64,000 nucleotides of DNA. Source: Bdellovibrionales bacterium. Its GTDB lineage: Bacteria > Bdellovibrionota > Bdellovibrionia > Bdellovibrionales > JAUICD01. Positions 54,001 through 57,000 of the stretch are shown here, one piece after another; positions within the stretch are counted from its first letter, which is position 1, and every line of letters starts with the position of its first letter. The stretch spans positions 1,280,001-1,344,000 of the forward strand of contig OZ241865.1 in NCBI GenBank assembly GCA_965203275.1, given 5' to 3'. The position numbers were made by a program.

Positions 54001-57000
54001 TGTTAAAATTGACATTATGGATGATGGCACGATCAATGTGGTATCTTTAGAACCTGAAACCAGACAGCAAGCCTTAGATATGATTAAGAATATTATAGCT
54101 GATCCAGAAGTAGGAAAAGTATATAAAGGAACAGTGGTCAAGATCGCTGACTTTGGTGCTTTTGTAGAAATTTTATCAAATACAACAGGTCTATTGCATA
54201 TTTCTGAGATAGCAAGAGAGCGTGTGACGAATGTATCAGATTACCTGAAAGAAGGCGATCAGATTGATGTAAAGGTATTAGATATGGATCGCACGGGTCG
54301 TATCAAACTATCCCGCAAAGTTTTATTGTGACTTTTGTTTCCCTTTCACTCAAAATGAGCCACATCTCTGTTTCACTAAAAGTGGTCTGACCTCTGGTCA
54401 CTTTCTGGTTGCCAGCCGAAGGCTATTCGCCTTCTTAAATGCTGGCAACCTAGAAAGCTTGACCACTTTTAGTAAGGAGGATCCATTTCTCATTTAACAC
54501 CATGTTAAGGAAAAAGTTCTTTCTTACACCTTTTGACCACGATGGCTTTCGCCATCGGTAAAATGGTCATCACCTAGAAAGCCTGACCACTTTTAGTAAG
54601 GAGGATCTCTTCGTTTCTTAACACCATGTTAAGGATTTGTTTCACTCAAAATGCATCATGCCTCTGGCATGTTTTCTGGCAGTTAGCCCAACGGCTTATC
54701 GCCGTTGATCAAAGGCTAACTGCCTAGAAAATCCATTTATTTTGAGTAGGGAAGGATCTTCTCGTCTCTTAACATGATGTTAAGGAAACAGTTCCTTCTT
54801 ACACCTGCTTGCCTGATGCCGGATCCCGGGATCCCGGATCCCGGAAAAAATCAATTTTAACTTTAAGTGTTTTTACACAACTTGTATAAATAAGCTCCTA
54901 ATTGATCAGCTTGTTTTGCTAATTCCATACAGCCACTAAATTCCAAGTCTAGTATTGCCTGAACTGTTTTTCACTAAAAGTAAACTAGCCGTCTTTTGCA
55001 CTAAAAGTAAACTGACCTCTGGTCACTTTTGGGTTGCCAGCCGAAGGCTATTCGCCTTCTTAAATGCTGGCAACCTCAAAAGTCCGTTTACTTTTAGTAG
55101 AGGAGGATCTCTTCGTTTTTTGACTACATGTTAAGGAAAATGTCCTTCTAATGGCAGTTAGTCCGACGGCTTATCGCCGCCGATCAAAGGCTAAGCTGTT
55201 TCACAGTGGTCTAGCCTCTGGCTACTTTTTGGTTGGTTTTTTGACTAAGTTATAATATAATGTTTCATTAGTTAGACAGATGATTAGAAATTAAGTTATT
55301 ATTAAGTATTATGTTTAAAGATATAAAGGGAGGTTCAAAGTTATGACAGAGAGAATTTTATTACAATTAACAATAGATGCTATTTTCAAGGCTTTTTTTG
55401 AAAATAGAAAAGATCTTTTAATTTCACTGGTAGAGAATTTTGTACCTTTGCCTAAGGGTTCTGTGATAGAGGATGTTTCATTATTAAACACAGAGCTTCT
55501 TCCCGATAAGGTTCCAGACGAATACAAATCCTTTACTTTAGATTTGCGTGTGAAATTAAGAAGACAGGTCAGAGGCGTTCTTCAAGATACAGATATTGTC
55601 CATGTAGAAGTTCAAACAACAAGTCAAAAATTTTTTACAGATCGGATATTAGTTTATGCTTCTAGGGCTTATTCTGGTCAGATAAAGAAAGGCGAAGATT
55701 TTAATCAATTACTTCCTGTGTATTCACTTGTTTTTACAACAGCTAATTTAAAAGAATTTGCAGGGATAAAGGATTACTATCATATCTGCAATATCCGTCG
55801 GACAAAACCACCAGAAGTGATTATGTCTCGTGGATTGTGTTTTGTCATTGTGGAATTAGGCAAGTTTCAGTCAAGTTTGCATGAATTATTTGACAAAAAG
55901 GCAGATTGGTGTTATCTTTTAAAGAACTCTGGTAATATGGATTTAAAGGAGTATACCAATTTTCAAAACAAGGGAGGTATTATGGCAGAAGCAGCAAAGC
56001 ACTTATGGATATTATCAAAAGATGAGACATTACAGGAACTTGCAATGGTGAAAGAGAGAGACAGAAAAGATCAAGCAGCCAGAGAAGAGGGTGCTTATGA
56101 AGAAGGAATGAAGAAAGGGATGAAGAAAGGTCGTAAGGAAGGAATGGAGGAAGGAATGGAGAAAGGAATGGAGAAAGGAATGGAGGAAGGAATGGAGAAA
56201 GGAATGGAGAAAGGAATGGAGAAAGGAATGGAGAAAGGAATGGAGAAAGGAATGGAGAAAGGAATGGAGAAAGGGATGGAGAAAGGGATGAAGAAAGGTC
56301 GTAAGGAAGGAATGGAGAAAGTGGCACAAAATATGTTGAAAGAAAATCTCAATATTTCATTGATTTCTACAATGACAGGTTTATCCAAAGATGACATTCT
56401 CAAGCTGAAAAAATAATTTGCTCAAAAGTAGCCAGAGGATTATCCCTAACCCCACCCCCCACCCTTTGATTGCTTTTTTCACTCAAAATGAACTGGCCTC
56501 TGGCCACTTTTGGGTAGCCAGCCCGACTGCTCACGCCGTCGTAAAAAGCTGGCTACCTCAAAAGCTTGTTCATTTTGAGTAGAGAAGGATCTCCTCATTC
56601 CTCTACACCATGTTAGGGAAAAAGTGCTTTTATTACCTTAAGAGCAAGCGGTTTACAAATGAGGGACTTTTTCCTTAACATGTAGTTAAAAAACGAGGAG
56701 ATCCTCCTTACTAAAAGTAAACGGATTTTTGAGGCATTGCTCTTTTTGGACAGCGATAGCTGTCAGAGCAATGCCCAAAAACAGCCAGAGGCTGGTTTAC
56801 TTTTAGTGAAACAGAGGCTGGTTTATTTTTAGTGAGAATAAAAGGAGGCGTTATGGCAGAGGCAGCAAAGCACTTATGGATATTATCAAAAGATGAGACA
56901 TTACAGGAACTTGCAATGGTGAAAGAGAGAGACAGAAAAGATCAAGCAGCCAGAGAAGAGGGTGCTTATGAAGAAGGAATGAAGAAAGGAATGAAGAAAG

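Follow-up and report, generated by a model that had tools for sequence, protein, structure and literature searches.

A conserved G-quadruplex-capable unit beside stop codons of a Bdellovibrionales bacterium is the outer block of a nested hairpin repeat

G-quadruplex (G4) motifs are numerous in the genome of a Bdellovibrionales bacterium with a G+C content of 35.1%, and one family of them lies just after genes with its G-rich strand as the template, raising the question of whether these motifs end transcription or have come to gene ends in another way. The example locus lies in the window, i.e., the whole 64-kb stretch of DNA that was analysed; the window coordinates first given for it are right, but window position 1 is contig position 1280001, not 1312001.

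A regex scan of both strands for four or more G3+ runs with loops of 1-7 finds 158 canonical G4 motifs (83 on the plus strand and 75 on the minus strand) and five 1-kb-block shuffles give 2, 2, 0, 1, and 1, in agreement with the initial annotation, which had counted 158 against 0-2. The same annotation had assigned the motifs to two repeat families; this holds for 69 GGGATCY-type arrays and 69 motifs of the 21-nt unit type; of the remaining motifs, 13 are plain G/C homopolymers (15-23 nt), a class that it left unmentioned, and seven are of other kinds. Crude gene calls place 14 of the 158 motifs within genes, compared with 24 in the earlier count. Nearly all the motifs are thus by-products of a hairpin repeat, here called G4E, and a GGGATCY microsatellite. 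Outside both repeat families, the first 100 nt after stop codons contain 682 GGG and 596 CCC with a C/G ratio of 0.99, and there is no strand rule after stops. The whole template-strand G4 signal after genes in this genome comes from one repeat family, G4E.

The GGGATCY heptamer arrays number 340 in the genome and contain 2-31 G-tracts. Arrays with 2, 3, 4, and 5 tracts occur 205, 75, 32, and 12 times, a steady fall with no peak at four, and 280 of the 340 hold merely 2-3 tracts, which are too short for a G4. All but one of the 69 G4-capable arrays lie outside genes. Beside stop codons, 19 have the G-rich strand as the coding strand and 10 as the template, a polarity opposite to that of the 21-nt unit. 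Flanking of an Avd-like gene (14 copies) by these arrays, as first annotated, is seen on both sides. Two arrays in the window have four G-tracts:

9960..9984, plus strand: GGGATCY-type array
57461..57484, plus strand: GGGATCY array

These arrays are an already published kind of repeat. GGGNATC-type G-rich heptamer simple-sequence repeats occur in Xanthomonas and Nostoc, and in the sections of that study concerned with them they are likewise 7-nt G3-tract units, variable in number, intergenic, and more often G-rich on the coding strand beside stops (Rehm, Wurmthaler, Li, Frickey, Hartig, 2015; PMC4692102). In the same sections, the loop is NATC, whereas it is ATCY here, and four units are preferred, unlike here; in addition, the present host belongs to another phylum and its arrays also flank the Avd-like gene.

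The example of the 21-nt unit is located as follows:

55343..56416, plus strand: gene of a PD-(D/E)XK nuclease-family ('Rpn-like') protein, 357 aa, GMEK-type repeat (PF12784, 87 bits)
56417..56443, plus strand: 27-nt spacer from the stop to the C-run, repeat-derived (famA fragment and ATAATCC tail)
56444..56464, minus strand: 21-nt G-rich unit GGGTGGGGGGTGGGGTTAGGG with four G3+ tracts; the plus strand is C-rich
56465..56473, minus strand: 9-nt linker GCAATCAAA, an AATCGAA flank variant and the sole remnant of the G4E body
56474..56625, plus strand: famA unit of an older genus-wide mosaic repeat, with f-end TTTCACTCAAAATGAAC and N module ACACCATGTTAGGGAAA

The distance of 27 nt from the stop, as first described, is correct, and the gene is one of 14 Rpn-like loci in the genome. 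Fold prediction for this region includes a G4. Of the element, the example retains just the unit and its linker, joined to another repeat; this truncated, 'short' form accounts for 10 of the 70 copies in the genome. The GC-rich hairpin beside the example is supplied by the famA unit. The window gives no match to Rfam 15 at gathering score, and the sub-threshold matches around the example are to microRNA-precursor and other unrelated models.

The strict 21-nt consensus GGGYGGNGGGTGGGGTTAGGG occurs 60 times in the genome, as the initial annotation had stated, and a looser pattern 70 times; the conserved 5' flank that it had described is present as GCAGAATCRAA in 44 of the 60 strict copies. By themselves, 67 of the 70 units match the canonical G4 regex, with a median G4Hunter score of 2.19 (range 1.52-2.82). 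When G4 energies are switched on and neighbouring hairpins are allowed to compete, a G4 forms in silico at the unit in the minimum-energy fold of all 43 intact copies, with RNA as well as DNA parameters, and the unit alone is predicted at -13.2 kcal/mol. In the same 43 copies, 17 of the 21 positions are invariant, compared with a mean identity of 0.84 over the whole element. The G-tract positions are all invariant, and so are T11, TTA16-18, and the GG of loop 1, which lie in loops; two loop positions vary freely. Conservation so much stronger than that of the element as a whole points to a function for this block. The states of positions 4 and 7 are shuffled across the two hairpin subfamilies described below, and the 3' end of the unit is GTTAGGGA, matching the core of 105 of 814 N modules in the genome. 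The 21-nt unit is the most conserved, outer block at one end of the non-coding hairpin repeat G4E.

The other unit copies in the window belong to more complete elements:

6975..7200, plus strand: subfamily A copy of G4E, left-end signature unmatched; unit 7180-7200, with a stop 89 nt away
12621..12847, plus strand: intact G4E copy consisting of T-run, TAGATTCTGC, hairpin, A-rich spacer, GCAGAATCAAA, and unit 12827-12847
28110..28335, plus strand: intact G4E copy used as the genome-search query, unit 28315-28335, 187 nt from a stop
57217..57443, minus strand: intact G4E copy, unit 57217-57237, 49 nt past the stop of ORF 56832-57167
57919..57939, plus strand: unit of a famA-interrupted copy with one broken G-tract (GAGG), 39 nt from the stop of ORF 57979-60147
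61508..61734, plus strand: intact G4E copy, unit 61714-61734; an AAA+ ATPase gene has its stop 214 nt away

All seven unit copies in the 64-kb window face a stop. In the copy at 12621..12847, 23 nt separate the G end from the mnmG stop (gene at 12871-14745, minus strand), and a heptamer array abuts the T-run end of the copy at 57217..57443. A look for sequencing runs covering window positions 52200-60200 listed no RNA run, and several DNA samples contain this organism. Over window positions 52200-62500, contigs of four DNA runs all break at repeats, and none bridges a G4E copy.

Alignments give G4E a length of ~225 nt, not 100 nt as initially estimated. On the G-rich strand it is composed of a 25-nt T-run, TAGATTCTGC (this left block is 99% conserved), a hairpin of ~105 nt, an A-rich spacer, GCAGAATCGAA, and the 21-nt unit; TAGATTCTGC and GCAGAATCGAA are terminal inverted repeats that pair in predicted folds. 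Among the 70 aligned copies, 44 are full, 16 interrupted, and 10 truncated. The left end and the unit are 170-182 nt apart in 43 copies, and most other distances are 323-336 or 467-486 nt, an increase of ~155 nt per inserted famA unit. None of the left-end/unit pairs examined encloses an ORF. The hairpin is long and imperfect, is predicted at about -76 to -79 kcal/mol, and exists in two co-varying subfamilies (23 and 21 copies) with compensatory changes in the arms. Over 44 copies, the G strand is predicted to fold slightly better than the opposite strand (-79.3 vs -75.7 kcal/mol; 169 vs 125 G-U pairs), which is given little weight because the copies are related. In the TMECO/BoxC triplex motif, according to the part of the study describing its geometry, a G-rich third strand mirrors the purine strand of an adjacent hairpin (Holder et al., 2015; PMC4666352). 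A corresponding intrastrand triplex in G4E was rejected, as the unit scored 7.26 against the mirrored left arm, 7.14 against the arm forwards, and 7.51 when shuffled (43 copies).

G4E always directly follows one module (N>) of the older mosaic repeat: T-runs after an N> module run on into the left end of G4E in 42 of 43 cases. In turn, famA units of the older repeat are inserted into G4E copies. A genome of the same genus (G001) carries famA/N arrays without G4E, and the G4E query matches it in the N-module part alone. The 14-nt core is absent from G001 to G004, the pattern of flank and unit is absent from all 40 relatives including the same-genus genome, the genome collection contains no match to G4E, and metagenomes contain none to the longer pattern. 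Three metagenome matches to the shorter pattern proved to be unrelated sequence. G4E thus appears from sequence comparison to be a young, species-specific repeat. At mnmG, the C-terminus has been swapped for repeat-derived codons; the 79%-identical ortholog in G001 has another ending with no repeat behind it, and beyond mnmG the gene order no longer matches that of G001. A single query with the second gene beside mnmG gave no match in G001, and no clean empty site could be aligned.

The orientation of the unit relative to stops had been given as 30:2. With the gene calls used here and a limit of 300 nt from the stop, 35 of the 70 units are C-rich on the coding strand after a stop and one is G-rich there, eight lie near a 5' end, and 26 near nothing, so that the polarity itself is regained (35:1); part of it, however, is geometric. 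The ratio is inflated when measured from the unit because the unit sits at the extreme end of G4E. When the two element ends are compared, the G end and the T end lie near a stop at ratios of 19:1 within 100 nt, 31:4 within 200 nt, and 36:9 within 300 nt, of which 19:1 still overstates the polarity, since the N>/famA module that always precedes the T end shields it and hardly ever lets it abut a gene. By topology alone, the G end in gaps between co-directional genes faces a stop 23 times and a start 13 times (p=0.13), and 11 of the 70 units lie between divergent genes.

Over the repeat background given by G4E-free N> modules, a signal is left. Units lie within 100 nt of the faced stop in 19 of 70 cases (27%), compared with 38 of 762 such modules (5.0%), or 47 of 762 when ~15 nt is allowed for the N tail (Fisher p=2.8e-7). 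Where they are the last module before a gene, units face stops at 18:6 and N> modules at 82:82 (p=0.028), with median distances of 42 and 126 nt, respectively. The 36 copies with the G end facing a stop within 300 nt flank 28 distinct gene families, and the share of these genes that belong to multi-copy families (five or more members), 14 of 36, is not significantly above the genome-wide 25.5% (p=0.08). The polarity is partly geometric, and the remainder is a genuine preference for gene-proximal sites. Both the closeness to gene ends and the conservation of the unit are as compatible with selection for a role there as with an insertion bias. Replication does not account for the orientation, as GC skew is weak and the units have no replichore pattern.

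The reading that we favor, with confidence and doubt about evenly balanced, is that the unit is the outer block of a selfish, species-specific G4E nested after the N> module, and is kept beside stop codons with an effect that is probably passive and similar to that of REP elements. G4E copies would multiply as selfish DNA, probably by copy-and-paste among the ~800 related modules, in which recombination or gene conversion would use the module-derived sequence at either flank, or alternatively by some enzyme. Marks of recombination are seen in three copies that are chimeric between the two subfamilies and in one with an inverted apex, and N-module homology is present on both sides of the G4E insert. 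The 90%-complete genome yields no match to the Y1 transposase (PF01797), the one transposase family searched for and one that control genomes matched, reverse transcriptase was not found in the genome, and no parent element with an ORF lies between any left-end/unit pair. AGTT stands on both sides of some copies but not all, and there is no consistent target-site duplication. Retained copies would mostly be those with a stop codon close by in front of the G-rich end; read-through RNA would there gain an unpaired C/U-rich stretch followed by a very stable hairpin, probably a passive effect, and this hairpin could fix or protect the 3' end. Such a passive effect is more likely than a template-strand G4 dedicated to stopping transcription.

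A more active role for the RNA is unlikely: G4E would be a gene-end module in which the unpaired C/U-rich tract loads Rho and the hairpin pauses RNA polymerase and blocks 3'-5' exonucleases. REP/BIME elements and Rho-dependent 3' ends in E. coli offer a parallel for the pause and the exonuclease block. The genome encodes Rho (697 bits, above the family cut-off), and the PNPase gene lies within the window. Counted from the C-run onwards, 45 nt contain on average 19.7 C, 14.9 T, 6.8 A, and 3.7 G, and the very stable predicted hairpin starts ~60 nt downstream of the C-run. The RhoTermPredict consensus, as far as its published description of the search goes, is a 78-nt window with C/G >1 and C every 11-13 nt, and a pause hairpin ≤150 nt downstream (PMC6407284). 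C/G exceeds 1 in such a window in 70 of 70 copies, but 33% of all gene ends in the genome have a ratio at least as high as the median of 1.71, and a chain of six or more regularly spaced C occurs in 4% of copies only; as a candidate Rho entry site, the C-rich tract of G4E is unexceptional. Dar and Sorek describe Rho-dependent transcripts that end at stable stem-loops without a U-tract, guarding against PNPase and RNase II, which is consistent with such a module (PMC6061677). The same study locates rut sites after the protective structure (PMC6061677), whereas the C-rich tract here is short and stands before the hairpin, with an A-run after it. In addition, gene ends outside repeats have no C>G bias, and the polarity would be unexplained, since a hairpin protects in either orientation.

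It is quite unlikely that the polarity results from a survival filter, in which both orientations land and copies with the G-rich strand as non-template are lost by transcription-induced G4/R-loop instability. In the results that Parekh et al. (2019; PMC7023247) give for an E. coli (G3T)8 insert, mutation was 354 and 270 times faster with the G-rich strand as non-template than in the opposite orientation, a dependence on orientation that would suit the filter, as would a polarity that is strongest near stops and fades with distance from 19:1 to 36:9. The removal of copies, however, leaves the 5-fold enrichment near stops unexplained, and G4-capable heptamer arrays persist on the coding strand by stops, including on both sides of the Avd-like genes. 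The filter would not be directly visible, because, by geometry, any stop behind the unit is at least 240 nt away.

Very unlikely in our estimate is that G4E is a self-spreading gene-end cassette, in which a template-strand G4 (or, equivalently, a C-rich Rho entry tract on the RNA) and a giant exonuclease-proof hairpin, installed just after stop codons, end and insulate transcription units without a U-tract. The near-invariant G-tracts, the five-fold enrichment by stops, and the replaced end of mnmG are compatible with this reading, which would apply to a bacterium where RNase E was not found. RNase E had been described as absent, and RNase E/G is indeed not found in the 90%-complete genome.

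The roadblock proposed in the initial annotation, in which the unit on the template strand folds into a G4 and blocks RNA polymerase leaving the gene, so that G4E is a DNA-structure terminator or insulator, is highly unlikely. The element-end ratios near stops, the predicted G4 in all intact copies, the invariance of the G-tracts beside free loop positions, and the lack of a U-tract terminator in G4E are consistent with it. So is the Quadrupia survey, whose section on gene ends reports bacterial G4s downstream of genes to be enriched 2.78-fold on the template strand and 1.54-fold on the non-template strand (PMC12581993, Genome Res 2025). As a gene-ending system, however, it would serve just 36 of 1940 called genes, the number with a unit within 300 nt of the stop, and G4E is not found in the same-genus genome or 39 other relatives. 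The end comparison is overstated by the shielded T end and much of the 30:2 bias is geometric; a pure G4 constraint does not predict the invariance of T11, TTA16-18, and the loop-1 GG; G4-capable heptamer arrays beside stops favor the coding strand; and gene ends outside repeats follow no strand rule.

Equally improbable is that the folded G-rich block is a recombination starter, which by nicks or stalls initiates gene conversion, like the pilE G4 of Neisseria, spreading G4E and driving the mosaicism and rearrangement of intergenic repeats. The chimeric copies, the inverted apex, the variable positions shuffled between subfamilies, the N-module homology flanking the insert, the failure to find a transposase, and the loss of synteny after mnmG would suit it. 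Against it, no breaks are evident, no promoter or small RNA is associated, and the units are untied to variable surface-gene families, as the multi-copy family counts show; one of the 36 flanking genes belongs to a 36-member cluster that is pilin-like in appearance.

A plain intrinsic terminator, which had been offered as the source of the orientation bias, is dismissed because, read in the sense of the gene, the hairpin leads into an A-run, not a U-tract. Read in the G-sense direction, the hairpin has the T-run ahead of it. A terminator pattern scan gave one match at G4E, where the T-run junction of the 57217 copy is atypical; hairpin bodies and the copy at 61508-61734 had no match.

REP/BIME/REPIN elements of gamma-proteobacteria have a bias to the 3' side of genes and have been proposed to protect mRNA 3' ends and to act in Rho-linked attenuation. 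Like them, G4E is an extragenic hairpin repeat of high copy number, mosaic and nested, with a 3'-side bias. Unlike them, it is ~225 nt rather than ~35 nt long, exceeding a short palindrome of 20-40 nt, has no GTAG-type signature, is G4-capable in its end block, and has a module as its fixed partner; a RAYT/Y1 transposase was not found in the genome. Correia elements of Neisseria are non-coding miniature inverted-repeat elements of <300 nt with terminal inverted repeats and subfamilies. G4E resembles these in being non-coding, <300 nt, and bounded by short terminal inverted repeats (AGATTCTGC / GCAGAATC), and in having dozens of diverged copies that form subfamilies and are inserted close to or into the ends of genes; it differs in that target-site duplication is inconsistent, no parent insertion sequence was found, and every copy is nested in one and the same older repeat. 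In Neisseria gonorrhoeae, the pilE G4 occupies one locus, upstream of a variable gene, and depends on a small RNA promoter. It and the 21-nt unit are both short-loop motifs of G3/G4 tracts in a bacterium, and pilE is linked to recombination, whereas the 70 unit copies stand at gene ends without a variable-gene or small-RNA-promoter context. The unit agrees with the Quadrupia trend in strand and in place relative to genes; in its section on gene ends, this is a cross-genome statistical trend with no element or mechanism named, whereas here it is one repeat family (PMC12581993).

G4E thus provides a concrete object for asking whether G4 polarity reflects function, a survival filter, or an insertion bias. 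If the G-rich block does stop polymerase or load Rho, G4E would amount to a portable terminator, with repeat expansion as its means of spread. Otherwise, it would be a warning that one selfish repeat, together with distance geometry, can drive genome-wide G4 statistics.

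A regular-expression recount over the whole genome (2,567,810 bases, 35.1% G+C) gives exactly the 158 canonical G-quadruplex (G4) motifs reported in the initial annotation, and five 1-kb-block shuffles yield 2, 2, 0, 1, and 1 motifs, in keeping with the background of 0–2 given there. The motifs had been assigned to two repeat families; this assignment holds for 69 GGGATCY-type arrays and for 69 motifs of the type of a 21-nt G-rich unit with four G3+ tracts, and leaves out 13 G or C homopolymers and 7 others. The homopolymer tracts (15–23 nt; e.g., G000:C1:593063–593082 and 2203619–2203641 on the window's own contig, outside the window), 9 of which lie within called ORFs, are candidate slippage (phase-variation) switches.

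The strict consensus of the unit occurs 60 times, as initially counted, with the flank GCAGAATCRAA present at 44 of these copies, and a looser pattern finds 70 copies genome-wide. The copy under study is C-rich on the plus strand, CCCTAACCCCACCCCCCACCC at 56444–56464, and does lie 27 nt past the TAA of the ORF at 55343–56416. The window itself starts at G000:C1:1280001 (to 1344000) and not at 1312001 as first recorded, the in-window coordinates of the finding being right. Alignment of the 70 copies together with their flanks reveals that the unit is the final block of a larger element, G4E, which measures ~225 nt rather than the 100 nt initially assigned to it.

Parts of G4E, in order along the G-rich strand
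Part 1: T-rich run, ~25 nt
Part 2: TAGATTCTGC
Part 3: ~25 nt
Part 4: imperfect hairpin, ~105 nt
Part 5: A-rich spacer, ~20 nt
Part 6: GCAGAATCGAA
Part 7: the unit

In 43 copies, the unit lies 170–182 nt from the left signature, and the other distances mostly cluster at about +155 nt per inserted unit of famA, an older genus-wide mosaic repeat (323–336 and 467–486 nt). There is no ORF between left signature and unit inside G4E, and no Rfam family matches the element. Full copies account for 44 of the 70; in 16 the left and right halves are split by an inserted famA unit, and 10, including that at 56444–56464, are reduced to ~30 nt (AATCGAA flank plus unit) joined to a famA end. The hairpin occurs in two subfamilies (n = 23 and n = 21), the lower arms of which are almost wholly different yet still complementary, and three copies are chimeras of both. 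At G000:C1:539109 (outside the window), the inner hairpin part is inverted relative to all other copies with the flank orientation kept, as recombination between the inverted arms would produce.

Across the 43 intact copies, the unit is invariant at 17 of its 21 positions, and positions 4 and 7 vary freely (identity 0.63 and 0.33), the mean identity of the whole element being 0.84. This pattern fits a structural constraint, but sequence-specific recognition would account just as well for the loop bases, and the GG within loop 1, that do not vary. With G4 energies included, the predicted minimum-energy fold contains the unit as a G4 in all 43 intact copies under both RNA and DNA parameters; the predicted energy of the unit alone is -13.2 kcal/mol and the median G4Hunter score is 2.19. 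A triplex reading of the unit was unsupported when tested. Right after a degenerate unit at 57919–57939, the plus strand carries more G-runs at 57940–57980 (GGGGG, GGGG, GGGG, GGGGG, GGGG), which overlap the C-rich 3' end of an ORF at 57979–60147 that has no Pfam match.

G4E is nested behind a module of famA termed N> (…TGTTAAGGAAA). A T-run follows 43 of the 814 N> modules in the genome, and 42 of these 43 T-runs, which are specific to G4E, lead on into its left end; G4E therefore always stands directly behind N> in a single orientation. On the 3' side of the unit, 34 copies have a short linker leading into the next famA unit, and ~23 have a tail of the form A-NNN-TCCYY, like the usual sequence after N>. 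The last eight bases of the unit, GTTAGGGA, are identical to the core sequence in 105 N modules out of 814. This suggests that G4E was inserted within an N-module tail and has N-derived sequence on both sides.

The element is young. None of 40 related genomes yielded the flank together with the unit. In the same-genus genome G001, which carries famA/N arrays but no G4E, a 261-nt query finds a match for just its first ~26 nt, the N-module part. The 14-nt core is not found in G001–G004, and two of the 40 relatives have one hit each; scans of genome and metagenome collections returned nothing real for G4E. Searches of this 90%-complete genome turned up neither a Y1 transposase nor a reverse transcriptase.

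The relation of G4E to genes was measured on 1940 crude gene calls, which span 76.7% of the genome. Among units no more than 300 nt from a stop, the coding strand is the C-rich one in 35 cases and the G-rich one in 1, reproducing the bias initially given as 30:2; such ratios are overstated, since the test is asymmetric, the unit being located at one far end of the ~225-nt element. The 36 copies with the G end (the unit end) facing a stop at this distance represent 28 distinct flanking-gene families.

Copies facing a stop, measured from the two ends of the element (G end, unit; T end, T-run)
Within 100 nt: G end 19, T end 1
Within 200 nt: G end 31, T end 4
Within 300 nt: G end 36, T end 9

Even these two-end counts overstate the polarity, because an N>/famA module always precedes the T end, which can therefore rarely adjoin a gene. 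By topology alone, the G end in co-directional gaps points toward the stop in 23 cases and toward the start in 13 (p = 0.13). Several polarity signals do survive the geometric corrections. Of the 70 copies, 46 have the G end toward a 3' end, compared with 43.8% expected from gap lengths (p = 2.6e-4), and 11 lie between divergent genes versus 29.8% expected (p = 0.009). Units lie within 100 nt of the faced stop in 19 of 70 cases, as opposed to 38 of 762 G4E-free N> modules, or 47 of 762 if ~15 nt is allowed for the N tail (Fisher p = 2.8e-7). As the last module before a gene, units are stop-facing 18:6 and N> modules 82:82 (p = 0.028), at median distances of 42 and 126 nt, respectively. All seven window copies face a stop, 23–214 nt away. 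Replication strand explains none of these signals. Outside the two repeat families there is no strand rule, the first 100 nt after stops holding 682 GGG and 596 CCC (C/G 0.99).

Several of the stop codons are themselves part of repeat-derived sequence. The last codons and stop of mnmG/gidA (window 12871–12930, minus strand) are famA-derived sequence, followed by G4E. The native end of this gene was replaced by a repeat island, since the G001 ortholog (79% identical) has a different end and is free of repeats downstream. The PNPase gene (window 52229–54331) lies just upstream of the repeat island with the 56444–56464 copy. A PD-(D/E)XK nuclease-family protein, with 14 loci in the genome, carries a long tandem GMEKGMEE/K peptide repeat (window 56100–56300) that scores as Yae1_N, and its low-complexity tail ties 75 ORFs into one BLAST cluster. 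Paralogous clusters are very large for a 2.6-Mb genome, with 25.5% of called genes in clusters of five or more; they include 130 ORFs with repeated helix-turn-helix-like segments, 36 type IV pilin-like ORFs (judged by eye) and 19 giant proteins of ~1100–1500 aa.

A plain intrinsic terminator, raised initially as a possible source of the orientation bias, is excluded. The transcript of the gene whose stop faces the G end reads C-run, hairpin, A-run, and in the opposite direction the T-run lies ahead of the hairpin. The only terminator-like match that a pattern scan gave at G4E was on copy 57217, on its atypical T-run junction; G4E has no U-tract terminator. The rho gene is present (match at G000:C1:517949–519181, outside the window), and its 570-aa open frame, against a model of 415 positions, suggests an N-terminal extension. 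Pyrimidines make up 77% of the 45 nt that begin with the C-run, in which G averages 3.7. By the RhoTermPredict criteria as described (PMC6407284), G4E is unremarkable: 33% of all gene ends attain its median C/G of 1.71, and chains of spaced C are present in 4% of copies. RNase E/G was not found in the 90%-complete genome, in line with the initial annotation.

We see about an even chance that G4E spread as a selfish nested repeat, which would have at most passive effects on transcripts. Much of the other weight is shared by three readings that may apply jointly: an RNA-level effect, a survival filter and recombination. By survival filtering, the orientation with a G-rich non-template strand could be removed via G4 instability. 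In E. coli, the stability of a G4 repeat is reported to be 270–354-fold lower when the non-template strand is the G-rich one (PMC7023247), an instability that could eliminate one orientation; however, such a filter leaves the enrichment of units near stops unexplained and fits badly with the persistence of heptamer arrays on the coding strand. That template-strand G4s are roadblocks or terminators of transcription, as initially proposed, seems improbable.

These heptamer arrays, (GGGATCY)n, belong to the GGGNATC-type heptamer kind (Rehm et al., 2015; PMC4692102), G-rich repeats described there as close to stops on the coding strand and rare between divergent genes. Of the 340 arrays, 280 contain no more than two or three G-tracts, and array counts show no maximum at four, so that their G4 capacity appears to be the tail end of a slippage distribution. 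Where a stop is the nearest gene end of a G4-capable array (29 cases), the G-rich strand is the coding strand in 19 and the template strand in 10. The arrays initially noted around an Avd-like unit were found upstream of 13 and downstream of 9 of 14 gene copies, ~100–130 nt away, with the G-rich strand being the coding strand of the gene in all but one case. These Avd-like/23S-rRNA-IVS four-helix-bundle genes (~122 aa; 14 loci, e.g., G000:C1:819138–819344 and 472382–472588, outside the window) are not parts of a diversity-generating retroelement, because the genome yielded no reverse transcriptase. Three tandem GGGATCY units occur in 1 of the 40 relatives.

For bacterial G4 motifs after gene ends, a pan-genome survey reports 2.78-fold enrichment on the template strand versus 1.54-fold (PMC12581993), and the present genome is an extreme single-family instance of the template-strand trend reported there. 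G4E represents a new form of REP/MITE-like element, specific to this species and nested in an older mosaic repeat.
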